Made by a program: the position numbers and the translations under genes
Source: a virus
Virus record (IMG/VR): IMGVR_UViG_3300021091_000016
Reading direction: 5' to 3' (one strand)
DNA length: 64,000 nucleotides
Notes under the pieces: generated by a model
The model's database searches: none
What the model was told of the DNA's origin: nothing
Seen by the model: the letters and a program-made list of their open reading frames with translations, nothing else
Part shown: positions 851 to 21,053 of the stretch, piece by piece
Numbering within the stretch: the stretch's first letter is position 1
Layout: each line of letters opens with the position of its first letter

Positions 851-906
851 ATGGTCTACAGGGTTGTCCCTGTACTGATGATGGGCCAATTGAGGCCCGA
901 AACCAT
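851..906 (+). ncRNA. type III hammerhead ribozyme HH1
   Basis: ATGG-TC^ TACAGGG/CCCTGTA (stem I), CTGATGA, extra T, GGGCC/GGCCC (stem II), GAAA-CCAT; predicted cut after C856. Confidence 0.9.
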
Positions 907-985
907 TTAACTGTAATAGTGCTTTCTATTCAGCACTTAAATATGAATATAAGCAAAATGGGTCTAATCTCATCCAATCTATCAA

Positions 986-1048
986 TGACAAGATACATAG
1001 CGTTCGATGCTATGCTGATGAGACCTAATTCGGGGTCGAAATCTGTCA
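986..1048 (+). ncRNA. type III hammerhead ribozyme HH2
   Basis: TGACAAGA-TA^ CATAGC/GCTATG, CTGATGA, GACC/GGTC, GAAA-TCTGTCA; predicted cut after A995. Confidence 0.9.
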
Positions 1049-1161
1049 AGAGATATCTAAAAAACATTTCTCATCAATACTGGTGGATTAACCGCTTAAT
1101 GAATCAAGCTTAGAGCCTCAGCTGCTCTATATTTCTCTTGGTTTATTTTTAATCCTGTAGT

Positions 1162-1170
1162 GACGAGACG
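1162..1170 (+). promoter_or_regulatory. GACGAGACG motif, putative phage RNAP promoter
   Basis: Repeated 9-mer downstream of a hairpin/T-tract and upstream of RBS AAGGAG and ATG 1198. Confidence 0.6.
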
Positions 1171-1197
1171 TCAAAGCCGACATAAAAGGAGATTCTT

Positions 1198-1971
1198 ATG
1201 TCAAATTGTAAACGAGGGATATTCCCTCAAGTCTGGCCAGCACAACTGGCTAATCCAGCTGGTTGCTGGAAAAGTGTTAAGGTGGAGCGTGCTCCATCAG
1301 TTTTACCAATGATTGTTTTAATGATTGTTGGTATCCTTGGTTTAATTTTGGGTTCATTCCTGGTGGAACCTAAAGCTACTCCTTTTTCAGGCTTGCAAAT
1401 CTGTAAGCCACAGCCTCAACCCATTCCTCAGCCTCAGCCTGAACCTGAACCTCAGATTGAGCCACAGCCTGAGCCTAAAGCCGAACCTAAAACCGAAGTT
1501 AAACCTAACCTAATTGATGCTGCTATCGCTGTAGCAAAAGCGCAAGAGTTTGTTTCCTCGTCTAACGAGGAGACTATGCGTTTGAGTTTGCAAACCGCAA
1601 TTGAACACTGGGAGTCTCTAGGGGAAACCCAAGATGACATCCAAAACCTAGTAGCGCTATATTACGTGGAAACACGTTATGGCGTGAAAGGGAAGATTTG
1701 CAGGGACGATACTGGCGCTTGTGGTCATTTCCAGATTGTCCCAAAGGTGTGGAAAAAGTTATTCGGCCAGCTCAAAGATGATATCGAGTCTCAAGCAGAA
1801 ATGCTTATCGATATTAGGGAACACCTAAAGACATATAGCGCTGATAGGTGGAAGGCTTATTATGCGCTATCATTCAAAGGTGCTCAAGCCGCTATCAAAA
1901 GCGGTAAATTGAGTGCCTATGAAGTAAGAAACAATAAAATTGAGAGCGAAATAAAGGCTCTCTTAAAATAA
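1198..1971 (+). CDS. membrane-anchored lytic transglycosylase/lysozyme-fold protein with PQ/PE linker
   Basis: TM helix, PQPEPE repeats, SLT-like YVETRYG...GACGHFQI motif. Confidence 0.6.
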   Translation: MSNCKRGIFPQVWPAQLANPAGCWKSVKVERAPSVLPMIVLMIVGILGLILGSFLVEPKATPFSGLQICKPQPQPIPQPQPEPEPQIEPQPEPKAEPKTEVKPNLIDAAIAVAKAQEFVSSSNEETMRLSLQTAIEHWESLGETQDDIQNLVALYYVETRYGVKGKICRDDTGACGHFQIVPKVWKKLFGQLKDDIESQAEMLIDIREHLKTYSADRWKAYYALSFKGAQAAIKSGKLSAYEVRNNKIESEIKALLK

Positions 1972-2012
1972 AATAACAATCATAAATACTAATACTAATT
2001 ATAATAACTAAA

Positions 2013-2070
2013 TCTTATATAGAGGGTTTCTCCCTCTACTGATGAGGCCTAATTGACGGCCGAAATAAGA
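2013..2070 (+). ncRNA. type III hammerhead ribozyme HH3
   Basis: TCTTA-TA^ TAGAGGG/CCCTCTA, CTGATGA, GGCC/GGCC, GAAA-TAAGA; predicted cut after A2019. Confidence 0.92.
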
Positions 2071-2131
2071 ACATCAGTTTGTATCATATCTTTTCTGTCA
2101 TTCTCGCTGTGAATAAATAAATAAGACATTA

Positions 2132-2156
2132 ACAAGACTTTCATTAGTCTTTTTTT
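2132..2156 (+). terminator. intrinsic terminator-like hairpin
   Basis: AAGACT-TTCATT-AGTCTT followed by a T run. Confidence 0.55.
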
Positions 2157-2183
2157 GTGCTTCATTTTTTAAACACCTGTAAT

Positions 2184-2192
2184 GACGAGACG
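2184..2192 (+). promoter_or_regulatory. GACGAGACG motif
   Basis: Context CCTGTAATGACGAGACG after terminator. Confidence 0.6.
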
Positions 2193-2197
2193 ATTTC

Positions 2198-2243
2198 AAC
2201 TCTAGCATGGCGCATTTTCTAGGTTCGATTCCTAGATAGAGTT
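2198..2243 (+). ncRNA. tRNA-like minihelix (acceptor stem + T-arm only)
   Basis: AACTCTA/TAGAGTT 7-bp stem stacked on CTAGG-TTCGATT-CCTAG T-arm. Confidence 0.55.
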
Positions 2244-2360
2244 TTAGACCAATTATGGTCGAGCTGGGTTTAGTACAACCCTCCAAAAGTACTCTTAAGC
2301 TAATACAATTCCGTATAAAGCTTTCGTATTTTAACAATCCCAATGTAAGGAGAATGCATC

Positions 2361-2696
2361 ATGGGAAAGTTCAATTTCAAAATTAACAAAGCCATCAAGG
2401 CTGAGTTGATTACACGAGGGTTGTTACCCTTATTCGTTAAGGCCGTAAAAGGTCTGGTAAATCAAGGCGTCGTTGTCACTGACAACAGTAGCGTCTTGTT
2501 GGCTCTTATTTCCTTCATGAAGGATAATAAAGGGTTTTTCACAAGAAAGCAATTGCTAGTAGTGTTGCTAGCATTGTTCCAAAAAGCGAGCTTTCTCTGT
2601 AGGACCGGTTGGTCCGCAGGTGGAGAAAGCTTCCTCGTTGACACAGAGAATGGGACTCTCTATGTCAATCTAAGCCAAGTCCAATTCTACTTCTAG
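2361..2696 (+). CDS. hypothetical protein
   Basis: 111-aa ORF with AAGGAG RBS. Confidence 0.75.
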   Translation: MGKFNFKINKAIKAELITRGLLPLFVKAVKGLVNQGVVVTDNSSVLLALISFMKDNKGFFTRKQLLVVLLALFQKASFLCRTGWSAGGESFLVDTENGTLYVNLSQVQFYF

Positions 2697-2990
2697 TAGA
2701 GAAAGGTAGCTATCATGCTAATTGATTCGTCCTAAACGAATTTGCGTCTAAAGTGCAGGTGTAATTCCTGTTAATCCCAAACCCCCAAACCCCAACCCTC
2801 ACCCAATGGAGATTATTATGGATACGTCCTAAAATCCCAGAGAGATGCTATTCGTTAGCTTAAACATCTCTCTTAACGCAAGCTAACAAGCGCACACGTC
2901 CCGTGGCTATCCAATAGCCATTACCCGAAGCCCAGAACGTCAACCCTCTCATTCACCTGTTTTGTCTGTCACCATTCTCCTATATATCGG

Positions 2991-3030
2991 ATAAGCCAAA
3001 GCGCTTCGGCGTGGTCTTGGTTTATTTTTT
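2991..3030 (+). terminator. intrinsic terminator-like hairpin
   Basis: ATAAGCCAA...GCGC-TTCG-GCGT...TTGGTTTAT then T run. Confidence 0.55.
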
Positions 3031-3056
3031 CCGCTATATATTTTGTGACTTGTAAT

Positions 3057-3085
3057 GACGAGACGAAAAATGACGAGACGAGACG
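3057..3085 (+). promoter_or_regulatory. tandem GACGAGACG motifs upstream of the RNAP gene
   Basis: Copies at 3057, 3072 and an overlapping copy at 3077. Confidence 0.65.
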
Positions 3086-3127
3086 AACTCGGTAAAATCA
3101 ATTGTACAACTGCATAAGGAGATTACC

Positions 3128-6100
3128 ATGCAGCAAGTAACTATTAAGGGGATTTTTGACCCCATATACGACCGCAACGTAAGTTTGGGTCGTGACATTC
3201 TAGCTTTGGCGTTAAAAAACGTTAAAGCAATTGCTTCAACCCAAGCCAAGGTTCAAACCAAGGCTAATTTCAAGATTAAAGCTAAGGTTAAAACCAAGGT
3301 CCAAGCAGAAGTCGTACGCGCTGAAAGAGCTGCAGCTAAGGCTAAAGCTCGTAAGGGTTATGATGTAGCTAGAGCCGCTCTCTGTTACCTATTAGGTGGC
3401 GGAAAGATTTTCAAAGACACTTTAGAAGCAGCAAGACTGTTTCTAAGAGGTGGAGTTGAAGCTCTCGGCTTGAATGGCATGCCCAGTAACGATGCTGGTG
3501 TTTATTATGCCTCGAGCTTGAATGCTGTACAAATGGTGTTGGCTGAGAAAATCGGTTTACTCAGCAGACCAGGGAAAGCCTTAAGCTCTGCAGCAAATTA
3601 TGATCAATATCGTGATTTATTGGAGAAGGTAATTCATGATGCTTTTCCTAAGAACGGGTTACAGCTTGATGAAGTCCAAATGAAAAGGGAATGGTTTAAG
3701 AATCTAACTGGCACTGCCGATTTAGATTCTGCTATCGGAGACTTTTTGGATGATGCAAGAAGAGCTGTCATGAGTCTAGATTGGGTGGGTCTGGATAATG
3801 GGGGGCTTGCGGTAAGAGTGAGTGGTCGTTTGATTACGGTGCTCAAACCACAAGTCAACTCCTTAAGGAGAAAGAGCGAGAGCAAGGTTTCGAAGGCTGG
3901 GAGCTCTATTAAGTTCGATCAAACGAACAATAGAGATGGTTCTCAGCTAATTGGAGAGTTAGTGGTGCTCCCAACTGGAGTTAAGAGTGAAACAAAAGCT
4001 GAAGGTTATGTAACTGAATCAAACAGCGACACAACCTTTGGTGTAATCACAAAGGTAAACTCAAGCTGGAATTCCAGTTTATTCCCTCTTTGTGAGGCGT
4101 TTGGAATTCAAATTGACCCAATCAAAGACGTAATTAAGATTACGTCTAAGGACCTGACGGAGGGTAACAAATCTAGAGCAAACGAAGGTTTGTTGGCTTT
4201 AGGCTACCTTCCTGTTACGGAAGGTGTTTATCTAAGGGAAGAAATTTGGGAAAAAGTAATGGGTGTCTTTGCTAAAGTATTTGGTGAGCTCAAAGATATA
4301 AGAAGCTATGGTAGGAGCTTCATAAGCACCCCAGCCTTGACGGCGTTCAAGGAGTATCAAAACATCCCAGTATTCCTTGCTGGTGATGATTTGCTGGGGT
4401 GGGAAGGGAATGATGGTGCTGGGTTGGTAACCGCAGGTACCATCATGGATAAGGGTTTCCAATTTAGATATATTGGAAATGGGCGGTTCGGTAAGGGATT
4501 AATTGCTAGATCCCATTATTTAGTGAAGGAACTGGAAGGAAAGTATAGCTTGGTAAGCTACAAAGATGATCTTAAACCAAGCGAATTCAATAAGATTCAA
4601 GAGTGGTTAAGCGATCTCGCTTGCTCAACTGGGTATTCAATAGAAAGTGAAAATGGGGGGACTTATCATAAGGCATTAATTCTAACGCCTTCAACCCTCA
4701 AGGGAATCAATAAAAAGATTCCCAAAGGTGGAGAATTTTTCCAAGGGGATGTGAATAGATTGACAACGATTATCGGCAAGGATGCTGATAAGCAAAAAAC
4801 TAGTAATAACTGGCAAATCGCTCAGCTATTACAAGCGTTGTCAAACCCCTCTCAGGATAAGGGATTTCTTCAGTTGAAGGATCATTTCTTTAAGGCCTTG
4901 GATAAAAAGGTAGGAAAGGCGATTGAGAAAGGGTTAAATTTGAGGGACAAAGGTGGCAACATGGATCTAATCCAATTGGCCACTTTTTTCAGCAGTGAGA
5001 AATATGCTCATCTGTTGAATACCTTCAATACCAAGGCCGAAAGTCGTTATGTCAACATGATGACGTTCGGTGGGGATGGTGTCTATGGAAATGGTGTGAT
5101 CCTAAAAGCATTCAGCAACGCTCACAAGGATAAGCTGGTGCTTAACAGCGTGTTAACACGCACGCCAAACCAAGATAGTCAATCTGTCCAGCTGCAGGAT
5201 AAAATCAATCCGGCTAAGTTGAGAGAGGTTCTGGATAGGTTAAAGCTGAATGGTTGGAACCGTAGCACATTAAAGACCTCAGAGGAGATTGAGGTAATCA
5301 ATAAAGTACTTGGCAATTGGAGTGCTGAGGAATGTGATAGATTCTTAGAGTTTTTCAAGAATGTAATATCACCCCAAATCAAGGATGGTTTGATTTGGGT
5401 CTCCAGTAATCTGCAAGGTATGATTACAGGAGATAATGATGGCGATAGAGATATCATTACTGATGACCCCTTATGGATTGCCATGGGAGAACTGATAGCT
5501 CTCAATACGGATGAGCGTCCGGTGAAGGAGAGCTTAAAGGCCTTTGTGCTTAAAGCAAAGGTCATACATGGGGATGGTAACGAGGTCGAATTGATGGTGG
5601 GAATGATGGATGATGAAAGTAGGAAGCCTGAACTTCTGAAATGTCTCAACTATCTGACTGCTAAAAATAGTGGTCAATTGAATGTAGGAGCAATCACAAA
5701 TGGTGCTGCGATAGCAACCACCTATTTTGATCCTATATTTGATGAGGATGGGACGTTTAGGATGAAGGAATGGGTAAGAAGATACTTCTTTACTTGTTTC
5801 GACATTCAGCAAGTAAGTATCGACAGGCAGAAATATGCCTATGTCATCCCGTCGTTGAGATACTTCCATCTCAATAAGGGTTTTTATCTACTTGATAATG
5901 GGAATGCCTTAATCATCCCAGGGTTAAGCTTTGTACCTGCGGGTATGCACAAGCTCAAACAAGTCCAGGGTGGACTTAAGGATGAGACGGAGGCAATCGA
6001 ATTTTTCAAGAAGGAATTTGGAAATTTTGAAGATGGCATAGAACATATGCCAGATCTAGAGCTGGGTGCAAAGCAAGTACAGATCACGGACCCCGTGCAA

Positions 6101-8659
6101 GGGTTTAGCGTGATTGGTGTGTACACATGGGCGCAATTTGTGCTCATGAGCTTCAAGCTTTGCGAAGCTCTAGGCGTGGATGAAATGAAATGGGGAGAGG
6201 TGTATGAGAAGCTCCTGACATCGCAAGATTTTGTTGGTTTCTTTAACGCAGATGGCAGGGATAAAGCAGGGCTTGCAACAAACTTAATTACTCTCTTGGA
6301 TGATTTAGTAGAGGTAAATGATCCTGCAAAGTCTTTGTTGGAGTTAACCCTAATCAGCAAAAAGGATATGTTGGGGTGGTTGGATGACGCAAATGCTATA
6401 AATCGTCCAGCACATATGCAACTCATCAAAGACAAAATTGATGGGATTGTGTTAAGTGCCTTGGATGATTGTAATATCAAAGCTCCTGATGTCAAGGACT
6501 TAGAAGCAGCGTTCCATACCGCTATAGGATCTCAATATGAGAGTTTAAGCTTCATCACCAACTATGAGGGTCATCAGATTGATCCTCAAGCCCACATGCG
6601 TGTCTTTAGTGATGCGCTAGCTAAGGCCAAAGAGGTCATGGCAAGAGAGGCAGAGGGTACTGCACAGAGCGTGAGGAAGCAGAGCTCTGCAGATAGCAGT
6701 ACTAAGGTCCTCTCTAAGGTAGCCAGCGCCTTTGGTGAAGCCTGGTATTTGGGTGGAGAGAGGGTAAGTGAGGAGGAGAAGGTGATGCAGAGTTTCTCTA
6801 ATAGTGTCTCGAAAGCACTATTGAACTCACAGGTCAATACAGCTAGCCGTAAGGATTATCTGGATAGATTTGAAGAAGCTGTTCAAAAGACAGCTTCTCA
6901 CGTCGTACTTAACGCAAATAAGTATGATAATGTGGGTGAGTTTATTGCATTCCTTGCGGAATGCATGGAGGCAATTGGAGAAGCAAGAACCAATACAGAT
7001 CGTTTAGATTTTCATGGTGAAAACCTAAAGGTGGATCTTATTGCTTTCTTCAATAAGCTGAACATGCATTCCGACCTCAAAACCCAAATAAATGCCTTAT
7101 ACAACCAGGTGTTTAAGAAGGGAGTAGAGGCTCTTTGGGACGGGATGGGGGACAAGGAAAAGGCTGTTCAAATTCTGGGACTTAAGCCAGGCACCAACCC
7201 AAGCTTTGATCAAAAGCTCTATTTGGTAAAGTTTAGTGCTTCGTATCAATTCTTTGAGAACAGCCTGGCTGTAATCAACAGATTGTATAAAGCAATAAGC
7301 TTTTATCCATCTGATTCTTCCTTGAAGGATAAGATGAAAGCTACAGTGCTGAGAAGCATTAAAAGCTTTGATAGAAACGCAAACCAATGGGTTGATGAGT
7401 TGGTAGTTGCTCCTGTAGCTGATTTCCAGCTCCCATTGGAATTCTGGGCTGAAAAGTTGATGGTTCTGCTTAACAGTGGAATCAATATCAACTTGAGGCT
7501 TAAGAAAGCTAAAAGGATCAAGACCCTAGATAACGGATATGATTTTTTCAAGAGTGATGATTGGGTCATGTACTCAAGCGTCATGCTGAAGTATCTGTCT
7601 GCTTTGGGGATTGATGTAAACCAATACCTCAGGACCGACCTAGAAATAGGTTTTGGTCATGTTTGGGGTTTAGCGGATTACCTCACTCTCTTACTAGGAG
7701 AGGCTGATACCAAGGGGAAGTTGGTAGGACATGCAGATGCAGCCGATGAGGCCGCCATTCAAGATATCTTTAAATCCAAAGGCTTAAATCTAGATGAATA
7801 TCGAAAGGCGCTTAATGTGCTCAAAGATAGCTCATTTAGCTTAAGTGGTGAGTGGAACCAAAAGATGAAAAATGGCGGAGAGACCCTTGTCGCAAATGAA
7901 ATGTATGTTGCGTTTCCTCTGATGTTAGTCAATAGCTTGGTTAAAAAATCAAGGAGAGATTCCAAACTTGACATCATGGATTATAATTATACCACAGCGT
8001 TGCGTGTTTCATTACACAATGCGTTGGGGGTAGAAATGGATAATTCAAGTGTTGGTGGGAATCAAGTTGATTTCGACCGAGTCCTAAAGGCTTTGTGGCC
8101 AGATAGAGTCCAGGAAGTCCTGGAATACTCTGGTTTTGGCCGTATTGCGTTTAGCAATTATCAGCCAAAAGAGTATATCTATGGCGGGTACCAGGTTGCT
8201 AGGTCTGTTGGTAAAGTCTTTGGTAAGGTCGCACAGGAGAAAACAGCTTACCAAAAGCTGAAAGAATCCAGACCTGTCGGGGGTTACGACCGCATAGAGT
8301 ACCAAGAGGAGTGGACCATGCAGACGCTCTTTGAAGCTCTAGCCCCTGAAGTACTTGAGAGTAACAAAAATTACAATCAAGACAAAAAGGGTTTAGTCTC
8401 TCTACTAGGTGTGATGTTGCTACAAAGCGATTTCATTACCTTAACAGAGATTGCCTTAGGGCTCAATAAGTTTGACGGTTCTGAAAGTCTTGTCGATCCA
8501 TGTTATTTCAGCTTGTACAGAAAAATCTCCAACAGAGATTTTCGAAGTTTACTGGCTTTGATTAAATATGGACAGCAAGGCAATAAGACCTTAAGCAAGT
8601 GGAATCTTCAGGTAAACCCAAAGCTTGACATCAAAGGCTTACTAAAAGCCTTCAATTAA
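3128..8659 (+). CDS. single-chain two-barrel (DPBB) RNA polymerase, YonO/QDE-1-like
   Basis: Ordered motifs FQFRY..G..GKG, TRTP, catalytic GDNDGD (DxDGD), VGAITN, SIDRQK match the cellular RdRP/YonO family order. Confidence 0.8.
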   Translation: MQQVTIKGIFDPIYDRNVSLGRDILALALKNVKAIASTQAKVQTKANFKIKAKVKTKVQAEVVRAERAAAKAKARKGYDVARAALCYLLGGGKIFKDTLEAARLFLRGGVEALGLNGMPSNDAGVYYASSLNAVQMVLAEKIGLLSRPGKALSSAANYDQYRDLLEKVIHDAFPKNGLQLDEVQMKREWFKNLTGTADLDSAIGDFLDDARRAVMSLDWVGLDNGGLAVRVSGRLITVLKPQVNSLRRKSESKVSKAGSSIKFDQTNNRDGSQLIGELVVLPTGVKSETKAEGYVTESNSDTTFGVITKVNSSWNSSLFPLCEAFGIQIDPIKDVIKITSKDLTEGNKSRANEGLLALGYLPVTEGVYLREEIWEKVMGVFAKVFGELKDIRSYGRSFISTPALTAFKEYQNIPVFLAGDDLLGWEGNDGAGLVTAGTIMDKGFQFRYIGNGRFGKGLIARSHYLVKELEGKYSLVSYKDDLKPSEFNKIQEWLSDLACSTGYSIESENGGTYHKALILTPSTLKGINKKIPKGGEFFQGDVNRLTTIIGKDADKQKTSNNWQIAQLLQALSNPSQDKGFLQLKDHFFKALDKKVGKAIEKGLNLRDKGGNMDLIQLATFFSSEKYAHLLNTFNTKAESRYVNMMTFGGDGVYGNGVILKAFSNAHKDKLVLNSVLTRTPNQDSQSVQLQDKINPAKLREVLDRLKLNGWNRSTLKTSEEIEVINKVLGNWSAEECDRFLEFFKNVISPQIKDGLIWVSSNLQGMITGDNDGDRDIITDDPLWIAMGELIALNTDERPVKESLKAFVLKAKVIHGDGNEVELMVGMMDDESRKPELLKCLNYLTAKNSGQLNVGAITNGAAIATTYFDPIFDEDGTFRMKEWVRRYFFTCFDIQQVSIDRQKYAYVIPSLRYFHLNKGFYLLDNGNALIIPGLSFVPAGMHKLKQVQGGLKDETEAIEFFKKEFGNFEDGIEHMPDLELGAKQVQITDPVQGFSVIGVYTWAQFVLMSFKLCEALGVDEMKWGEVYEKLLTSQDFVGFFNADGRDKAGLATNLITLLDDLVEVNDPAKSLLELTLISKKDMLGWLDDANAINRPAHMQLIKDKIDGIVLSALDDCNIKAPDVKDLEAAFHTAIGSQYESLSFITNYEGHQIDPQAHMRVFSDALAKAKEVMAREAEGTAQSVRKQSSADSSTKVLSKVASAFGEAWYLGGERVSEEEKVMQSFSNSVSKALLNSQVNTASRKDYLDRFEEAVQKTASHVVLNANKYDNVGEFIAFLAECMEAIGEARTNTDRLDFHGENLKVDLIAFFNKLNMHSDLKTQINALYNQVFKKGVEALWDGMGDKEKAVQILGLKPGTNPSFDQKLYLVKFSASYQFFENSLAVINRLYKAISFYPSDSSLKDKMKATVLRSIKSFDRNANQWVDELVVAPVADFQLPLEFWAEKLMVLLNSGININLRLKKAKRIKTLDNGYDFFKSDDWVMYSSVMLKYLSALGIDVNQYLRTDLEIGFGHVWGLADYLTLLLGEADTKGKLVGHADAADEAAIQDIFKSKGLNLDEYRKALNVLKDSSFSLSGEWNQKMKNGGETLVANEMYVAFPLMLVNSLVKKSRRDSKLDIMDYNYTTALRVSLHNALGVEMDNSSVGGNQVDFDRVLKALWPDRVQEVLEYSGFGRIAFSNYQPKEYIYGGYQVARSVGKVFGKVAQEKTAYQKLKESRPVGGYDRIEYQEEWTMQTLFEALAPEVLESNKNYNQDKKGLVSLLGVMLLQSDFITLTEIALGLNKFDGSESLVDPCYFSLYRKISNRDFRSLLALIKYGQQGNKTLSKWNLQVNPKLDIKGLLKAFN

Positions 8660-8750
8660 CAATTAACACAAAACCCCCACATCGGGGCTACTAAAGTGAA
8701 TAGTTTAAGCTAATCATTTTAAAAGTCCCGTATGTGGGAGAAAGGTATTT

Positions 8751-9209
8751 ATGGACCTAAATGAATACAAAGCTTTCCTAGATGAGCTTAAACAACTAGG
8801 GGTTGAAGAATATATCATGGCGGATATCTTGTTCGAAAAAGGATACACTTCACCGTATCAGTTGGCACGTGCTGGTGTGTCAAGCGCGATTATACATGGA
8901 GTGAGGATTCTTATGTCACAAAAGGCTGCTAGCCAAACTGGCAGTCAGATAAATGTTACTATTGGGAATATTTATGTTCTTGATGGTAAGACTGACCTCA
9001 AAACAATGCTGGCTTTAGCTGGTATCAATGGGGTTGACCCAAAGCAGATAACTTCCTCGCCAAAAGTATCTGTTAAAGCTACCCCGGTAACACCAACTCC
9101 TAGCACAGTGGTGATACCTCCCCTCAAAGCTCCTGCTACATCTAATAAGTTCGCAAACCTCTCCAACGATGACGATGAGGATGATGAGACTGATTATGAT
9201 GACAATTAA
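8751..9209 (+). CDS. hypothetical protein, acidic C-tail
   Basis: 152-aa ORF with RBS. Confidence 0.75.
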   Translation: MDLNEYKAFLDELKQLGVEEYIMADILFEKGYTSPYQLARAGVSSAIIHGVRILMSQKAASQTGSQINVTIGNIYVLDGKTDLKTMLALAGINGVDPKQITSSPKVSVKATPVTPTPSTVVIPPLKAPATSNKFANLSNDDDEDDETDYDDN

Positions 9210-9214
9210 CGAAA

Positions 9215-9276
9215 GGAACTGATGAGCCTCCCGGGAGTGGGAGGCGAAACCTAGGGCTAACCCCCGATGGTCTTCC
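9215..9276 (+). ncRNA. type I hammerhead ribozyme HH4
   Basis: GGAA CTGATGA GCCTCCC/GGGAGGC GAAA CC-TAG..CGAT-GG TC^ TTCC; cut after C9272. Confidence 0.9.
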
Positions 9277-9388
9277 ATTGCTCCAACCCTTTTTATACAC
9301 ATACTATAGTGTTTCGATGCGGACTCCGCCTGAAGAAAACTCCACTATAGCAGATGGTATTCTAACACTTTTTTAAAGGAGTATAAAT

Positions 9389-9760
9389 ATGTTAGACACA
9401 GACAGTTTACTAGACGCCGCCCAGAAAGCTACTCTTGATATTCTTCCCGATGATCAAAAAGCAGTAATCAAGGCACTGTTAACAACGCAAGCCCAACTAC
9501 AAGCCAGGAATTTAATTCTCGGTGAGTTCAGCAAGGCAACGGCACTGGCACTTCCCTATGGGAAGGAAGTCAAGGCTTTAACGCATATTGTTAATACGCA
9601 AGCGGACCTAGCCACGCTAAGTGATTTTATCACAAAAGCAATGGCTTTAGGTTGTGGCTTCTCGCTAGTTATCCAAGCACCCCAAGGTGATTTGTTCCAG
9701 AAATGGAATAAAGATATCCACAAAGGTGTAGTTGGACTAAAATCCGAGCTTAGTAAGTAA
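9389..9760 (+). CDS. hypothetical protein
   Basis: 123-aa ORF with AAGGAG RBS. Confidence 0.75.
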   Translation: MLDTDSLLDAAQKATLDILPDDQKAVIKALLTTQAQLQARNLILGEFSKATALALPYGKEVKALTHIVNTQADLATLSDFITKAMALGCGFSLVIQAPQGDLFQKWNKDIHKGVVGLKSELSK

Positions 9761-9808
9761 GGGTTTTTAGGACCGGTTAGGTTCTTTTTTTCTAAACCTT
9801 GCAGTCGA

Positions 9809-9817
9809 GACGAGACG
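9809..9817 (+). promoter_or_regulatory. GACGAGACG motif
   Basis: CGAGACGAGACG after a T-tract. Confidence 0.6.
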
Positions 9818-9930
9818 GCAAAAATAGAGTCTACTTGTAAAAATCAGAATACCATCCGTGGAGCTTCACGTAAAAGAGCTAGACCTTGACTCGAGGTCGT
9901 CTTAACTGTTTTGCATCAAAGGAAACTATC

Positions 9931-10071
9931 ATGTTCTATTCAATAGAAATCGCAATCAAATATTTAAGCTGTCTCCCCTACAATGTTAACACTTCTGTTG
10001 ATGTTGTATTACTCGATAAAACCTTTTGCGTTAGTAAAAGATACGCAATCATAACTGTAAAGGAAGTCTAA
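9931..10071 (+). CDS. small hypothetical protein
   Basis: ATG 9931 behind AAGGA, in frame with track ORF 9886..10071. Confidence 0.5.
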   Translation: MFYSIEIAIKYLSCLPYNVNTSVDVVLLDKTFCVSKRYAIITVKEV

Positions 10072-10072
10072 A

Positions 10073-10219
10073 ATGAAGTTATTTACTGTATTATTAAATA
10101 ATGGTCAGGTAGAAAGTATTAAGTGCCGCGATCAACAAATGGTTGGCGGTATTATTTCGGAGCTCACAGGTGGTGAGTTATATGTAGTTGCCATTTTAAA
10201 TGAGCAACAATTGGGCTAA
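10073..10219 (+). CDS. small hypothetical protein (48 aa, not in track)
   Basis: MKLFTVLLNNGQVESIKC...QQLG*; AAGGA RBS; stop overlaps HH5. Confidence 0.6.
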   Translation: MKLFTVLLNNGQVESIKCRDQQMVGGIISELTGGELYVVAILNEQQLG

Positions 10220-10268
10220 CTGATGAGTTCTTAAGAACGAAACCTAGGGTAAAACCGATGGTCTTAGT
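10215..10268 (+). ncRNA. type I hammerhead ribozyme HH5
   Basis: GCTAA CTGATGA GTTC/GAAC GAAA CC-TAG..CGAT-GG TC^ TTAGT; cut after C10263. Confidence 0.9.
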
Positions 10269-10299
10269 ATAAACACAACACAACACAAGGAGATCAAAC

Positions 10300-10476
10300 A
10301 TGCTAAAGTTTGTTATCAGGCAATTAGAGGTACCAGATTGGGATCCTCTTAGGTGGGAAGTCGCGGTGTATAGGAATGGTGTCGAGGTGTATAATGATAT
10401 TGATACCAAGGAGAATCTCGTAGGTTTATTTGAACACTTTGTTCAGAAGGAGAATCAAAATGAGATTGGAGATTGA
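10300..10476 (+). CDS. small hypothetical protein (58 aa, not in track)
   Basis: MLKFVIRQLEVPDWDPLRWEVAVY...; AAGGAG RBS. Confidence 0.65.
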   Translation: MLKFVIRQLEVPDWDPLRWEVAVYRNGVEVYNDIDTKENLVGLFEHFVQKENQNEIGD

Positions 10477-10603
10477 AGTATGGGATAAGGAGCATTGGGA
10501 AGTTAAGGTTATGGATGAGAGTCAAGTCATGTATCATGACGTAATTTATTGGACTCAATTAGAGGGTTTAATTGCGGAATTGAAATTGAAATATAATTTT
10601 TGA
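10460..10603 (+). CDS. small hypothetical protein (47 aa, not in track), likely paralog of upstream ORF
   Basis: MRLEIEVWDKEHWEVKVM...; AAGGAG RBS; shared WEV-x-V...V-x-Y/Y-x-D pattern. Confidence 0.65.
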   Translation: MRLEIEVWDKEHWEVKVMDESQVMYHDVIYWTQLEGLIAELKLKYNF

Positions 10604-10801
10604 TGGGGCGCCATTATTACGCGGTCTCTTATTGTCTGGTCTTACAATAAAAGGCTATGGTAGTCAAGTTTGATTACCAGAATAGACCTATATATTTTTT
10701 AATATCTTGGATCGGCATCCAAGCGAAATTATACGCCGTAGACAGTGAAAGGTCGCATTAAACCTTTCTTTGTTAACAAGAGCAAAAATTAATGCCGTCC
10801 A

Positions 10802-10874
10802 GCCAACTGATGAGGACGTTAAACTTAGACCCTTGAACAAGGTCGAAACCTAGGGGAAACCCGATGGTCTTGGT
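10802..10874 (+). ncRNA. type I hammerhead ribozyme HH6 with 14-nt core insertion
   Basis: GCCAA CTGATGA [GGACGTTAAACTTA] GACC/GGTC GAAA CC-TAG..CGAT-GG TC^ TTGGT. Confidence 0.75.
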
Positions 10875-10949
10875 AGTTTAATAGTAGTATGTTGCTATTA
10901 TTGAATTGGTTTTTTAAAACCAATCTTTTTTTAAAACCCTTTCTTTTCC

Positions 10950-10973
10950 GACGAGACGTCACCTGACGAGACG
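10950..10973 (+). promoter_or_regulatory. two GACGAGACG motifs
   Basis: GACGAGACGTC at 10950 and 10965, after TTGGTTTT/AAAACCAA hairpin + T run, before RBS of 11000. Confidence 0.65.
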
Positions 10974-10999
10974 TCGCTGTACAATAGGAGATTTTTAAT

Positions 11000-11254
11000 A
11001 TGCAAGAATTTTTAAGTTTTGTTGAGAGCCAAAAACAAGTAACAAGAAACAGAAACTCTACAAATAGCATTGTTGAGAATGTTGCCAAGCTACTTGAAGC
11101 AAACATTACACATCTATTAAAGGATCATCATGCTATATATCAAATTTCCCCTGATCCATTAGAATATGGAAAAGTATTTATTAATAAGACAGTTTATCAA
11201 ATTGTAGATACTGAAAATAGAAAAGCATTATTAATTTATAATTTATATAACTAG
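11000..11254 (+). CDS. hypothetical protein
   Basis: 84-aa ORF, AGGAG RBS. Confidence 0.7.
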   Translation: MQEFLSFVESQKQVTRNRNSTNSIVENVAKLLEANITHLLKDHHAIYQISPDPLEYGKVFINKTVYQIVDTENRKALLIYNLYN

Positions 11255-11313
11255 CCAACTGATGAGACCTTTAGCATGGTCGAAACCTAGAAGTGATTCG
11301 ATGGTCTTGGTAG
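11251..11313 (+). ncRNA. type I hammerhead ribozyme HH7
   Basis: GCCAA CTGATGA GACC/GGTC GAAA CC-TAG..CGAT-GG TC^ TTGGT; cut after C11306. Confidence 0.9.
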
Positions 11314-11342
11314 CTTTAACCGTAACAAGAAGGAGACTCATT

Positions 11343-11648
11343 ATGAGTATTGTAGAAATAAATATTATTGCGGCGATTATTTGTATATGTATCGCAACAA
11401 TATATAACCTACTCACTGATTTTAAACGATTCAATGATGTAGCTGTAGTAGCATGGTCTATATTAGAAGTGCTGGGATTCAAAAGAGAGTACCATTGGAG
11501 CGGTAATATTATTGCATTCGTTCTTAACCAAGTAGTGAATGTAGTAGTATTTATGTATTTGCCAGGACTATTCCTAATCTGTGCTATATCCTATATTATT
11601 GTAGGATTAAATAGCATATCAGAGGAGTTGAATGCAAATGAGCTTTAA
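11343..11648 (+). CDS. hypothetical membrane protein
   Basis: AAGGAG RBS favours ATG 11343 over 11262 (which lies inside HH7); hydrophobic. Confidence 0.65.
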   Translation: MSIVEINIIAAIICICIATIYNLLTDFKRFNDVAVVAWSILEVLGFKREYHWSGNIIAFVLNQVVNVVVFMYLPGLFLICAISYIIVGLNSISEELNANEL

Positions 11649-11868
11649 TATTGCTTTATGTATCTTTTCATCCTGGTTGTTCGTAGACGAAATGCAATTC
11701 TTAAACGCAACACTTAACCAAACGCTTAGACTCGATATAAAGATTCTAATGCATATGATTACCTTAACTGTACTTTCAATGAATGCATCAATGATGCTAT
11801 CCATGCCACAAAGCTACACTCTATTCGGAGTAGTAGCTATCATAACCTATATCATCTACAAAGGATAA
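11632..11868 (+). CDS. hypothetical membrane protein
   Basis: Hydrophobic 78-aa ORF. Confidence 0.6.
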   Translation: MQMSFNIALCIFSSWLFVDEMQFLNATLNQTLRLDIKILMHMITLTVLSMNASMMLSMPQSYTLFGVVAIITYIIYKG

Positions 11869-11873
11869 CTGTA

Positions 11874-12200
11874 ATGTTAGAAGAACACTATCAAGGCTCA
11901 GCATTTAGAGAATGCCAAACCACTGACAATGAAATGTATTGTCAAACAAACAAATTTATTACTAGAGATGATAAGGTAATTGAGTATGTCGAAAGATATT
12001 ATAAGAAAACCTCATCGTTCTTGGTAATGTTCAATCCCTCAAATATCCCACTATTTGAGGATAGGGTCATGGTCTATGCAGAACAAATTCAATTTGCTAA
12101 GAACCTAGACATGGATATTAAATTTAAGAAGGATAAAAGACATCCAGATTTATATGTAGTACATATCGACCCAAAGAGTGAGATAAACACTACATGTTAG
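11874..12200 (+). CDS. hypothetical protein
   Basis: 108-aa ORF in a tight gene chain. Confidence 0.65.
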   Translation: MLEEHYQGSAFRECQTTDNEMYCQTNKFITRDDKVIEYVERYYKKTSSFLVMFNPSNIPLFEDRVMVYAEQIQFAKNLDMDIKFKKDKRHPDLYVVHIDPKSEINTTC

Positions 12201-12436
12201 ATTTGTATATTAGCTGTTGGATATTCAGCAGTATCTTTTTTATTGGTTATATATTGGTAAAGAGAGATGAGATAGAAGCTGTTAATGTGCCGTTTGATTT
12301 AGAATTTATTAAATCGGTAATAGGCTTTTACTTCATGTCATTCTTTACCTGGCATATGCTAGTGGCTCTATTAGTCACAGACCCAAAAGGATTTGATAAT
12401 GAAATTAAGAAATCAGTCCAAAACTACTCAAAATAA
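12194..12436 (+). CDS. hypothetical membrane protein
   Basis: 80-aa ORF, two hydrophobic segments. Confidence 0.6.
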   Translation: MLDLYISCWIFSSIFFIGYILVKRDEIEAVNVPFDLEFIKSVIGFYFMSFFTWHMLVALLVTDPKGFDNEIKKSVQNYSK

Positions 12437-12449
12437 AGGAACACAAAAA

Positions 12450-12830
12450 ATGAGCAATCAAGACACAACAACAGAGACTCCTAAGGTAGATACACCTAAG
12501 GTAGAAGCTCCAAAAGAAGAAACTCCCAAAGTGGAGACTCCTAAGACAGAAGTAAAAAGCTTTAATGAAATCTATAAGGACTTACCTAGATGGTCTAAGA
12601 TATTACTCTCGTTAGTAGTAATTAGTGCAATTTATAAGTTCGTCCCAATTGTGGAGCTATTGACATTGTTTTTCTGGGCTGTAATGGTTCCAGTAGTATT
12701 TCTATTTATGTTAGGCGTTATTAGTAGTGAGACCTATGATTCCATTTGTGATGGAATCACTGGTATTAAGAAAGCCGTCAAAACAAAGCTAGAAGAAGAA
12801 AAAACACAAGCTCCTCAGAATGCATCGTAG
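12450..12830 (+). CDS. membrane protein with ETPKV repeats
   Basis: AAGGA RBS before ATG 12450; TPKV repeats and two TM helices. Confidence 0.65.
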   Translation: MSNQDTTTETPKVDTPKVEAPKEETPKVETPKTEVKSFNEIYKDLPRWSKILLSLVVISAIYKFVPIVELLTLFFWAVMVPVVFLFMLGVISSETYDSICDGITGIKKAVKTKLEEEKTQAPQNAS

Positions 12831-12914
12831 TGCGTGTACTGAACACAACTACAGTCTTTTACCCCTAGAAAACCTAATCCCCCCTATCTCGAAAAGAGAG
12901 AAAGTACTTAACAA

Positions 12915-13478
12915 ATGTTTAGTAAAGTATCAAATGTAATCACAGTTTTTAAAGCATTTTGCCACAATCCAAGCATTCAAGGAGAATTGATGGACAGCTT
13001 AAGAAAGAAAGTAGTAGAAAGCTCAATGAATCTCATCACTGTATATAGTGCAGTAATTGATGAAAGACATAAGGTAATCGAGACTTTATCTAAATTAGAG
13101 GATACTGTTAATCTTATTGAGGAAAGATGGAACCTACATGTAACAGATGTAGCTACATATAAGAATACAAAGATTGGTAAAGCAGTAAAGGCAATTATTG
13201 AATCAGATTCTGAGATTGATAGCAGGGTAATTAATAAGCTAGAATCAGCAATCGACGATGTGAATCCAAGAAAAATTATCAATGTTTACAAGGCTTTAGA
13301 TACTGGTAGTCTCGAGAGAAGGCTTGATGCACTACAGGAACAATATGAGGAGATTCAAGGAATTAATGGTATTGCTGCTAGAGATACAGAGGTACTAGTC
13401 AAGCATCATATGCAACTAGTAGAGATGGTATTGGCAGAAAGGAAATGTGAATCCACACAAGAAGAATATAATTTTTAA
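12915..13478 (+). CDS. hypothetical coiled-coil protein
   Basis: 187-aa helical ORF. Confidence 0.65.
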   Translation: MFSKVSNVITVFKAFCHNPSIQGELMDSLRKKVVESSMNLITVYSAVIDERHKVIETLSKLEDTVNLIEERWNLHVTDVATYKNTKIGKAVKAIIESDSEIDSRVINKLESAIDDVNPRKIINVYKALDTGSLERRLDALQEQYEEIQGINGIAARDTEVLVKHHMQLVEMVLAERKCESTQEEYNF

Positions 13479-13720
13479 AAATATTTAAATATTTTTCTTG
13501 ATTTTCCGTTGTTACTTGTGTAATCTCAAATATGTGAGATGAGGTCGCAACGTTGCAGTTGCTTGGGTTGTTTGTGTTCAGTCCTAATTTATCGATTTTA
13601 TCGATACTTTAGGATTGCCTCTTGACTTAGTATACATAATATATGTATATATAAGTTATATACCCCCGACAGGGGGTAAGTCCTTCTGACTATAAAAGAA
13701 AAAAAGAAAAGAGATAAGAT

Positions 13721-13890
13721 GACGAGACGGCCCTAGTCTATTAGGTCAAATCAAACTCTAGTCTATTAGCAAACACTAAGGCCAAAACTCAGCTCGACTA
13801 GAGCTCACTCTATTGAGTCAAACTCAAATCAAACCCTAGTCTACTAAGGCAAACACTAAGTCAAACTCGAATCAAGCCATTCAAATCGAA
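13721..13890 (+). repeat. GACGAGACG followed by degenerate short direct repeats (CTAGTCTAYTA, GCAAACACTAAG, TCAAA)
   Basis: CTAGTCTATTAG at ~13733 and ~13758, CTAGTCTACTAA at ~13836; GCAAACACTAAG twice. Confidence 0.65.
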
Positions 13891-16845: not shown

Positions 16846-17205
16846 ATGAATTTTAAAGCATATTTGAAACAATTAACACCACTTGCGTTACTTAAGCTTG
16901 CCTTTCAAGACCACCTTGAGTCTTTAGGCTACAATAAAATTTCAGATACACTTTATATTCAGAATAATATCTCAATAGAGCTTCAAATGAATTCATTTGA
17001 ACCAACTATTGTTATACACGATAGGTCTACCAATACTGTTACTAGCTATTTATTCGAACCAAACATTATGTATAAGGACTCTGCAATCATTAAAACAGAA
17101 AGATTAGATGATGTATATTTCGTTGATGATTATATAGATCCAGTAAATGCATACACTCTATTGAAAATGATTACAGATAAAAAAGAGGAATTAGAATTAG
17201 AATGA
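16846..17205 (+). CDS. hypothetical protein
   Basis: 119-aa ORF, AAGGA RBS. Confidence 0.65.
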   Translation: MNFKAYLKQLTPLALLKLAFQDHLESLGYNKISDTLYIQNNISIELQMNSFEPTIVIHDRSTNTVTSYLFEPNIMYKDSAIIKTERLDDVYFVDDYIDPVNAYTLLKMITDKKEELELE

Positions 17206-18386
17206 TTACATCTATAGTAGGCGCTCAATTTGGAGATGAAGGCAAAGGTAAAATTACAGATTATTTAGCTAGTGAATTAAACAATCCCACTGTAGTTAGA
17301 TGGTCTGGTGGTTCAAATGCTGGACATACTATTCAAGTATATGAGCGCGAATACAAATTAAAGCTAGTGCCATCTGGAGCTTTAAATAAAAATGCCACAC
17401 TGATTATTACTGGCAGCTGTTTAATTGACCTGACTAAGTTAATAAACGAGTTGGAATATTTGAAGAACAAATGGCTCGAACCAAAGCTAATTATTGATAA
17501 GGAATGTATATTAACATTACCTCTACATAAAGAATTAGACGTTAAAAATGATTCCGTACTAAATATTGGTACTACAAAATCAGGAATCGGTCCTACTGCA
17601 AGTGATTATGTAAACAGATTAGGAATCTCAATTAGAGATGTATTAAATGAAGAACATGTGGAGAGATTATTAAACGTAATTAAGCTACATGGTATTGGCG
17701 ATTTAGATGAAAATCTAAAGGAACTAAATTTAATACACGCCTTAAAAATATACTCAAATGTTACACTGCTATCTAGAAAAGAAGTGATTAAATTAATTAA
17801 GCAATCAAGCAATGTAATCTTTGAAGGTGCACAAGGTTCACTACTAGATATAAACCATGGCACATATCCCTTCTGTACTAGTACCCCCTGCCTGGCTTCA
17901 GCAATTCCTTATGTAACTGGAATTGGAAATCTAAGAATAGATAAAAATATAGGCGTTTTTAAAGCCTATGTTACTAGAGTCGGTAATGGAGAATTTAGAA
18001 CAGAGCTATTAGAAGGTAGTGTTAAAGAACACCTTCAATCTAAAGGAAAAGAAATAGGAACAAATACAGGACGTACTCGTAGAGTAGGCTGGTTAAACAT
18101 ACCAAATTTAATAGAAGCATGTGAGTTAAATAACTTTAATGAATTAGCTCTAGTAAAGATAGATGTGTTAACCGGATTAGATACTGTAGCAATCCTAGAC
18201 AAAGAGAATAATTGGTGGACTTTTGATGGTTGGAACGATGAAATCTCTAGCTGCAAATCTAAACATGAATTACCTAAACAAGTAATTCAAATTATAGAGT
18301 TTATCGAAAGCCAAACTAAATTACCTGTAACAATAATTTCTGTCGGACCAGACAGAAATCAAACAATAAGGATTCAAAATGATTGA
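17202..18386 (+). CDS. purA: adenylosuccinate synthetase
   Basis: GAQFGDEGKGK, GGSNAGHT, EGAQG, GTYPFCTS, TGRTRRVGW. Confidence 0.97.
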   Translation: MITSIVGAQFGDEGKGKITDYLASELNNPTVVRWSGGSNAGHTIQVYEREYKLKLVPSGALNKNATLIITGSCLIDLTKLINELEYLKNKWLEPKLIIDKECILTLPLHKELDVKNDSVLNIGTTKSGIGPTASDYVNRLGISIRDVLNEEHVERLLNVIKLHGIGDLDENLKELNLIHALKIYSNVTLLSRKEVIKLIKQSSNVIFEGAQGSLLDINHGTYPFCTSTPCLASAIPYVTGIGNLRIDKNIGVFKAYVTRVGNGEFRTELLEGSVKEHLQSKGKEIGTNTGRTRRVGWLNIPNLIEACELNNFNELALVKIDVLTGLDTVAILDKENNWWTFDGWNDEISSCKSKHELPKQVIQIIEFIESQTKLPVTIISVGPDRNQTIRIQND

Positions 18387-20895: not shown

Positions 20896-20969
20896 GGGCC
20901 TGTAGCTCAGTTGGTTAGAGCAGCGGTCTCATAAACCGCGGGTCAACGGTTCAAGCCCGTTCGGGCCCA
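20896..20969 (+). tRNA. tRNA with CAT anticodon (Ile2 or elongator Met)
   Basis: Cloverleaf GGGCCTG/CGGGCCC, anticodon arm GCGGT-CTCATAA-ACCGC, GGTTCAAG T-loop; no encoded CCA. Confidence 0.93.
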
Positions 20970-20977
20970 TGAAATTT

Positions 20978-21053
20978 GTCTAAGATATTTTAATAGTAAA
21001 ATGCCAAATTTATCCTTTTATAGGCGATGTAGGTGCAACTCCTACTCTTAGAC
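20978..21053 (+). ncRNA. atypical tRNA-like element / pseudo-tRNA
   Basis: GTCTAAGA/TCTTAGAC acceptor, ATTT/AAAT D-arm, GTAGG-TGCAACT-CCTAC T-arm, non-canonical anticodon arm. Confidence 0.55.

Follow-up and report, generated by a model that had tools for sequence, protein, structure and literature searches.

What are self-cleaving ribozymes doing between the early genes of a phage, and why would one phage need seven of them? The question is raised by the IMG/VR virus record IMGVR_UViG_3300021091_000016, of which a stretch of 64,000 nucleotides (nt) was analysed here (hereafter, the window). A reading of this DNA from its letters alone (hereafter, the sequence-only reading) had reported seven hammerhead ribozymes (HH1 to HH7) in the early region, three of type III upstream and four of type I downstream of a large gene labelled as RNA polymerase (RNAP), and had proposed that they process the early transcripts. 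Our analysis confirms that the seven elements are conserved hammerheads and suggests that they probably act as operon punctuation.

Detection of seven hammerheads in the window

A simple pattern search (CUGANGA...GAAA) over the 64-kilobase (kb) window gave 14 matches, and a paired second helix was present in 7/14, all on the + strand at 851-11311. The full descriptor, in which the core and its three helices must be accompanied by U16.1 and by a cleavage nucleotide other than G, found exactly seven hammerheads on the + strand and zero on the other strand, against a chance expectation of 0.08 full motifs per 64 kb on both strands (random sequences with the same dinucleotide statistics; maximum of 1 in 150 trials). 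The core nucleotides C3 U4 G5 A6 N7 G8 A9 and G12 A13 A14 are unsubstituted in 7/7 (CUGAUGA and GAA), and the three helices with their core-adjacent pairs (1.1-2.1, G10.1-C11.1 and A15.1-U16.1) are present in every copy. U16.1 is always followed by a non-G cleavage nucleotide H17, which gives the trinucleotide GUC in HH1 and HH4-HH7 and AUA in HH2 and HH3.

The predicted cut sites (Table 1) are identical to those given by the sequence-only reading, and the descriptor together with the map of open reading frames (ORFs) bears out its seven complete cores, their sense and intergenic placement throughout and the arrangement of three type III and four type I copies around the large gene. Its statement that the rest of the window holds no hammerhead was upheld by a relaxed descriptor, a custom covariance model and Rfam searches: the window has neither a type II copy nor one with a single mismatch in the core, the custom type I model matched only the four type I copies, and Rfam at E ≤ 1 detected no ribozyme over the remaining 51 kb (13-64 kb).

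Conservation and covariation in relatives

The window represents one arm of a large uncultivated phage, and all its sizeable ORFs are on the + strand. The large one codes for a protein of 1843 amino acids (aa), which is carried by contigs of up to 152 kb and has no match in Pfam, PHROG, PDB profiles or the Atlas; it is at most a putative RNAP, a label supported solely by its invariant GDNDGD motif. Three relatives of this protein were found, and the comparison below uses the DNA of two of them, L017 (a freshwater metagenome contig) and L022 (an IMG/VR contig), whose large proteins are 61% and 35% identical to that of the window. Four further contigs (L018-L021) are the same phage as the window. 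The annotated phage collection contained no near-identical DNA, and a metagenome scan with the large-protein alignment gave no relative.

L017 carries seven hammerheads (four type III and three type I) and L022 carries six (four type III and two type I), all of them sense, with type III upstream and type I downstream of the large gene. Gene order is syntenic, the hammerheads of the window, L017 and L022 lie at syntenic junctions, and the 20 copies of the three phages are without exception sense and intergenic. In the 11 type III copies, 143/143 stem cells are paired and 11/13 pairs vary on both sides, a pairing that was reached by 0/1000 shuffles, with the stems delimited by maximal pairing and the count therefore biased toward paired cells. 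The invariant pairs are just G10.1-C11.1 and A15.1-U16.1, as expected for the class. For type I, we aligned 24 copies, nine of the clade and a further fifteen that a pattern of core and helix III had located on other IMG/VR contigs. Here 96.9% of the cells are paired versus 69.5% after shuffling (0/500 shuffles reach 96.9%), 11/15 pairs vary on both sides, controls with slid partners are only 24-49% paired, and the same two core-adjacent pairs are invariant in all 24 copies. Because the positions are kept down to 35% protein identity with compensatory changes in the stems, the seven elements are real hammerheads under purifying selection.

The order of the two types was tested on an unbiased IMG/VR sample. 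A general rule of type III upstream and type I downstream was rejected, because L054, L062 and L105 have type I followed by type III and L047 is mixed. The order of type III before type I holds in the window clade and in L002, L008, L014 and L015. It is probably a clade feature that stems from local duplication of two founder modules.

The Rfam hammerhead models, which the sequence-only reading had suggested as a check, gave zero matches at gathering thresholds. The families compared were RF00008 (Hammerhead_3), RF00163 (Hammerhead_1), RF02275 (HH9), RF02276 and RF03152 (RAGATH-1-hammerhead). At E ≤ 10, small slices included, weak matches were obtained only for HH3 (best score 21.6 bits, RF00008, threshold 48.5), HH5 (19.1 bits, RF02275, threshold 52) and HH7 (21.4 bits, RF03152, threshold 56.3; RF02275 also weak), and HH1, HH2, HH4 and HH6 had no match at this level. 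The core nucleotides and the three-helix junction of the Rfam families are the same as here, whereas the scores are far under the thresholds; this weakens the claim to a place in the curated seed families but not the claim to a place in the ribozyme class. Arrays of this sort escape standard Rfam annotation entirely, and phage operons punctuated by ribozymes are therefore probably more frequent than current counts suggest. The silence of the models at threshold could also be taken to mean that the seven elements are chance look-alikes devoid of ribozyme function, but the excess of observed over expected motifs and the covarying orthologous copies in two relatives effectively refute this explanation, and we regard its probability as negligible.

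Structure of the type III copies

HH1 has helices of 7, 5 and 5 base pairs (bp). As in most type III copies of the relatives, its A9 and G10.1 are separated by one additional U; the hammerhead of chrysanthemum chlorotic mottle viroid (CChMVd) naturally has, and tolerates, an additional nucleotide in that position (PMC1636495). In its orthologues L017_a and L022_a, every stem is kept via compensatory changes. The third helix of HH2 consists of 4 bp plus three pairs past a bulged A, and HH2 is situated about 65 nt upstream of a terminator-like hairpin and the GACGAGACG motif at 1162. The minimum-free-energy fold of HH3, whose orthologues are L017_d and L022_c, is the three-way junction. AAUUGA-like sequences are kept in loop II of the type III copies, in agreement with the AAUU-containing loop pointed out earlier. 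The trinucleotide AUA of HH2 and HH3 is a natural variant that performs well during transcription (PMC1636495).

Short boxes complementary to the ribozyme core follow some of these copies. Past HH2, the box UCUCAUCA is complementary to UGAUGAGA of the core; 35/2000 shuffles match this complementarity, which is thus weak, and the box may have a role relative to the HH2 core. Past HH3, the box CAUCAGU is complementary to the CUGAUG core. Such a CAUCAG/CGUCAG box lies 2-6 nt past HH3, L017_b, L017_d, L022_c and L022_d, that is, past 5/7 of the type III copies that precede a terminator and 0/4 of those that precede a gene. In single-sequence shuffles, the complementarity is not significant (163-1052/2000 equal it for most copies). 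The core-complementary boxes appear to be a conserved feature only, and we assign no role to them.

Structure of the type I copies and their pseudoknot potential

The third helix of the type I copies is built from three proximal pairs, a UA/GAU internal loop that is conserved and, distally, a hairpin that covaries, and the same design is found in 16 IMG/VR loci. Type I copies begin 0-6 nt past a stop codon, relatives included. HH4 begins 6 nt past a TAA, and the first helices of HH5 and HH7 overlap the stop codon: the TAA of ORF 10073-10219 sits within the first helix of HH5, and HH7 begins at the G of the TAG of ORF 11000-11254. The sequence-only reading had placed these three copies at or just after stop codons, and its remark that HH5 and HH7 cut shortly before the next start is also correct, as each cut is 37 nt ahead of an ATG (at 11343 for HH7).

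HH4 has a G+C-rich second helix of 8 bp, the second helices of its orthologues L017_e and L022_e covary, and the HH4 loop GGAG is able to pair with CUCC located 5 nt past the first helix. HH6 has a 14-nt insertion that is best read as a bulge of the second helix; the bulge sequence UUAAACU (10819-10825) can pair with AGUUUAA (10875-10881), the 7 nt directly past the first helix. Further downstream, HH6 is followed by a hairpin (10880-10902) and then by a terminator. Upstream of HH6, about 200 nt without an ORF (10604-10801, + strand) are missing from L017, in which the orthologous 47-aa gene abuts its hammerhead directly. The minimum-free-energy fold of HH7 is the three-way junction.

Moreover, loop II of the type I copies tends to be complementary to the 3' flank (16 nt past the first helix): the mean best duplex of 3.58 bp compares with 3.07 bp in shuffled sequences and exceeds all 500 shuffles (maximum 3.46). 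No such enrichment over shuffles was seen for the 5' flank. By copy, this pairing is longest in HH6 (7 bp), followed by HH4 (4 bp), whereas HH5 and HH7 reach only 3 bp. Hammerheads depend on a tertiary contact of helices I and II, through their loops or a pseudoknot, for activity at physiological Mg2+. The putative pseudoknots would match the kind of stabilisation that Perreault et al. (2011; PMC3088659) showed to be critical for many hammerheads of bacteria and phages.

Layout of the early region

The array is embedded in a series of units delimited by promoter-like motifs and terminator-like hairpins (Table 1).

Table 1. Positions of the hammerheads and associated features in the window
Feature	Position	Strand	Description
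HH1	851..906	+	Type III; cut after C856 (GUC); descriptor, stem comparison
HH2	987..1047	+	Type III; cut after A995 (AUA); descriptor
HH3	2013..2070	+	Type III; cut after A2019 (AUA); descriptor
HH4	9215..9276	+	Type I; cut after C9272; 62.4 bits, custom covariance model
HH5	10215..10268	+	Type I; cut after C10263; descriptor, custom model
HH6	10802..10874	+	Type I; cut after C10869; descriptor, custom model
HH7	11254..11311	+	Type I; cut after C11306; 67.4 bits, custom model
Leader past HH1	907..951	+	ACUGU, hairpin 918-937, AUAAGC box, AUG 949; alignment
Core-complementary box past HH2	1069..1076	+	Complementary to HH2 core; sequence
Core-complementary box past HH3	2072..2078	+	CAUCAGU, 2 nt past HH3; sequence
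Terminator-like hairpin and U-run past HH3	2134..2156	+	Covaries in relatives; then promoter-like motif 2184-2192
GACGAGACG motif island	1162, 2184, 3057-3085, 9804-9817, 10950-10973, 13721	+	Motif search
Unit 0			Gene A (ends 813), HH1, leader remnant, HH2, terminator-like hairpin 1111-1129
Unit 1			Motif 1162, gene B (1198-1971), HH3, terminator 2134-2156
Unit 2, start			Motif 2184, 111-aa gene, conserved non-coding stretch, motifs 3057-3085
Unit 2, rest			1843-aa gene, 152-aa gene, HH4, 123-aa gene, terminator 9769-9791
Unit 3			Motif 9809, two small genes, HH5, two small genes, HH6, terminator 10903-10932
Unit 4			Motifs 10950 and 10965, 84-aa gene, HH7, 101-aa gene and onward

The promoter-like motif GACGAGACG has 13 matches at ≤1 mismatch versus 1.9 expected. 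Its exact copies are confined to 1162-13729 on the + strand, an island that overlaps the hammerhead region. The motif is usually preceded by a U-run hairpin, stands in tandem ahead of the 1843-aa gene and is also present in L017 and L022. HH2, HH3 and HH6 and their orthologues lie 30-90 nt upstream of terminator-like hairpins.

The leader past HH1 aligns with the leaders past L017_a, L017_c and L022_a and with the one past an L022 promoter (at 7570). Four of these five leaders thus come after a hammerhead and the fifth after a promoter motif, and the hairpin covaries. A gene follows this leader in the relatives, whereas no intact gene follows it in the window. Between the HH4 cut and the next start codon, there is a long hairpin with the arms CUAUAGUG and CCACUAUAG (9304-9350, + strand), which is conserved in L017.

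With regard to gene content, 4/4 differences between the window and L017 adjoin a hammerhead; for example, L017 lacks both HH5 and the 58-aa gene after it. The hammerhead-free region at 11.3-14.9 kb is collinear with L017 gene for gene. In L017, the gene between HH_a and HH_b is a paralogue (40% identical) of the gene past HH_c and has the same leader, so that a whole hammerhead-leader-gene unit has been duplicated. These facts suggest that the ribozymes mark module joints.

Probable operon punctuation and alternative explanations

We consider that the seven elements are active, cis-acting hammerheads that would cut early polycistronic transcripts of the same strand and thereby punctuate the operons, and we put the probability of this explanation at roughly two in three. 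The complete motifs and their conservation, covariation, orientation and placement were computed directly. The earlier proposal of transcript processing agrees with sense elements located where genes and operons meet. What we infer is that the RNA is cut in the cell, that this happens while it is being transcribed, and that stability and translation are affected as a result.

In the proposed mechanism, cutting would happen as the early transcripts are made, and each cut would leave a 2',3'-cyclic phosphate on the upstream RNA and a 5'-OH on the downstream RNA, ends that are expected to influence decay and translation. The type III copies (HH1-HH3) would cut at their own 5' edge, so that the downstream RNA would keep the folded ribozyme at its 5' end. 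HH1-type copies, which stand ahead of the conserved leader, would create by processing a 'promoter-equivalent' 5' end, and HH2 and HH3, which are located between a stop codon and a terminator, would sever the terminator from the message. The type I copies (HH4-HH7), beginning at or just past a stop codon, would cut at their own 3' edge, and by this topology the ribozyme would remain on the upstream message as a structured 3' end, while the gene after the cut would start with a short leader of 37-117 nt. Each gene or cassette may thus acquire defined ends, translation insulated from its neighbours and a stability that can be set separately.

Several points weigh against operon punctuation. No Rfam hammerhead model reaches its gathering score (15-22 bits versus 48-56), AUA, as in HH2 and HH3, is a slower trinucleotide in post-transcription assays (PMC1636495), and HH6 contains the 14-nt insertion adjoining its core. 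The type I copies have a first helix of just 4-5 bp and show no advantage over shuffles in folding energy, so the case for type I rests on motif and covariation, and type I activity would depend on the putative pseudoknots. Moreover, most transcription units have their own promoter-like motif and terminator, so that a need for extra processing is not obvious.

The proximity of HH2, HH3, HH6 and their orthologues to terminator-like hairpins leaves room for timed or regulated switches: the pre-terminator copies would remove a protective terminator hairpin and make early messages short-lived (early shut-off), and the downstream core-complementary box would set the cleaved fraction or lock the product. 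The restriction of the box to pre-terminator copies agrees with such switches, and Perreault et al. (2011) raise regulated cleavage of phage hammerheads as possible (PMC3088659). However, the box complementarity is no greater than in many single-sequence shuffles, shared ancestry of the copies may alone explain the conservation of the box, the 2',3'-cyclic phosphate end could protect the message instead of exposing it, and a ligand-binding or sensor domain is not visible in these copies; we consider regulated switching unlikely. Another explanation is that of hitch-hiking repeats, in which hammerhead-plus-leader modules would have spread by local duplication or recombination without any benefit for expression. 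The nearly identical flanks of the type I copies (GCCAA...UUGGUAGCU), their likewise similar proximal third helix, the gene-content differences that adjoin hammerheads and the duplicated unit in L017 would all be expected from such spreading. Neutral repeats would, on the other hand, decay at this divergence, whereas the copies have kept their positions at about 35% protein identity, maintain each helix by compensatory change, are sense and intergenic in 20/20 cases and, if of type I, are locked to stop codons. A purely hitch-hiking origin is thus quite improbable.

The array might also serve to release discrete small RNAs, namely the 139-nt piece between the HH1 and HH2 cuts, which the sequence-only reading had regarded as a possible product that could circularise, and pieces of about 140 nt past HH2 and HH3 that would consist of the ribozyme body plus the terminator. 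A convincing ORF is absent from all three predicted products (857-995, 996 to about 1140 and 2020 to about 2156), and the HH2-type and HH3-type downstream pieces are alike in length, with a covarying terminator hairpin in all three phages. In the relatives, however, the orthologous HH1/HH2 pair encloses a gene of about 200-230 aa, of which the window keeps the leader only. The simplest view of the 139-nt piece, as far as the alignment tells, is therefore that of a remnant left by a deletion rather than of a purposeful small RNA. Circularisation of this piece by the ribozymes was rejected: the third helix has AUGGU in HH1 but AAGAU in HH2, so that one cannot stand in for the other, and the two ends therefore cannot rebuild one hammerhead for self-ligation. 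The spacers past HH2 and HH3 are poorly conserved outside the ribozyme, box and terminator, and no RNA ligase or kinase gene able to handle ribozyme-made ends was seen among the ten larger ORFs tested. Small-RNA release as the purpose of the array is therefore very improbable.

Operon punctuation may have a further aspect. The hammerhead-plus-leader modules could be portable, promoter-equivalent insulators, a natural counterpart of the synthetic RiboJ element, which would form the joints of a plug-and-play cassette system. This idea, which we hold tentatively and think possible but doubtful, draws on the location of all four gene-content differences at hammerhead boundaries, the duplicated hammerhead-leader-gene unit in L017, the occurrence of the same leader after a hammerhead in four places and after a promoter motif in a fifth, and the position of the array inside the GACGAGACG motif island. 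If true, accessory genes could be inserted, duplicated or lost within early operons without disturbing their neighbours.

Other features of the window

A further conserved stretch of about 350 nt without an ORF (2697-3048, + strand) separates the 111-aa gene from the promoter motifs that belong to the 1843-aa gene. Its counterparts are L017 5176-5530 (90% identical) and L022 9012-9378 (68% identical, although the flanking proteins are only about 35% identical). It contains several hairpins with compensatory changes and a C-rich run (CCCAAACCCCCAAACCCC) and ends with a UUCG hairpin and a U-run; no Rfam match was found at E ≤ 10. By its sequence, this stretch is a candidate for a new structured non-coding RNA.

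Elsewhere in the window, a second transfer RNA (tRNA)-like gene (20979-21053, + strand; 35.9 bits in Rfam) adjoins tRNA-Met (20896-20969); it has about 11 extra nucleotides in the anticodon region and was not called by ARAGORN. A full-model match to a group I intron-like element was found between two ORFs at 50128-50386 on the + strand (36.6 bits, E about 8e-6, threshold 50). The region 17202-19542 (+ strand) codes for a PurZ-type adenylosuccinate synthetase (phrog_1211, E 2e-82) and, after it, for a protein resembling adenylosuccinate lyase, a pair that suggests a 2-aminoadenine-containing genome. A split DNA polymerase (phrog_405) occupies two ORFs with about 1 kb between them (51218-52477 and 53529-55139, + strand).

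Comparison with known systems

In the early region of phage T7, host RNase III cuts hairpins and leaves 5'-phosphate and 3'-OH ends. The T7 sites likewise lie between genes and divide a polycistronic early transcript, which yields individual messages whose ends are structured, and the analogy to T7 drawn by the sequence-only reading is apt in that the placement at gene and operon boundaries and the sense orientation are much alike. T7 uses a host protein nuclease, whereas here the RNA would cut itself and produce 5'-OH and 2',3'-cyclic phosphate ends; the accompanying phrase that processing occurs without host nucleases is worded too strongly. The RiboJ-type synthetic insulator is a type III hammerhead plus a hairpin before a ribosome-binding site. 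HH1-type copies likewise combine a type III hammerhead, a conserved hairpin and a start region, which would give the downstream gene a fixed 5' end irrespective of the upstream sequence; RiboJ is engineered, whereas the HH1 arrangement is natural and its insulating effect presumptive.

Among natural viruses, the hammerhead HHphage of the haloviruses HF1 and HF2 also belongs to an early region, that of a lytic virus, and directly precedes an early gene; a mapped transcript 5' end lies within 3 nt of its cleavage site (PMC3088659). HHphage is a single copy of variant architecture that needs high Mg2+, whereas the window has seven full-consensus copies. Multiple hammerheads that flank single genes or short gene blocks have been described in prophages (Perreault et al., 2011; PMC3088659). 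Three of these arrays cleaved in vitro and one in Escherichia coli, processing of long transcripts was proposed, and spliced or circular products were sought but none was found (PMC3088659). The prophage arrays resemble the present one in having several sense cis hammerheads of mixed types between phage genes and in their proposed role, which is to yield messages of single-gene or operon length; many of the prophage copies are stabilised by a pseudoknot, which is putative in the window. On the other hand, the tested prophage arrays are tandem or triple, whereas the window has seven copies in 10.5 kb. The window phage also differs from those prophages in being large (a 152-kb contig), apparently of lytic type and from freshwater, and its array is conserved in the clade and tied to a promoter-like motif island and a shared leader.

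Several same-strand hammerheads flanking single genes or short blocks are also present in L017, L022, L001 (seven copies), L005 (five), L015 (five) and further contigs. Among the matches listed from IMG/VR contigs holding a hammerhead-like core, 22/69 locus-strands have at least two hammerheads and 16 have at least three, with some up to seven. L001 (IMGVR_UViG_3300031366_000001) has its seven type I copies within 4 kb, L005 has its five type I copies within 1.5 kb, and L015 has three type III copies followed by two of type I, in each case on the same strand.

A 2019 review still gives processing as the leading suggestion for the function of bacterial and phage hammerheads and calls for more work (PMC6765202). 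The idea of polycistronic processing rests on few prophage examples. The clade studied here adds three phages with a dense and conserved array, 20 copies in all, whose placement obeys clear rules: type I at stop codons, and type III before the shared leader or before terminators. These rules lead to testable predictions on how the topology of the ribozyme sets the ends of messages. In view of the known prophage arrays and the multi-copy IMG/VR contigs, the array of the window is a rich and well-conserved example of an arrangement that has already been described.

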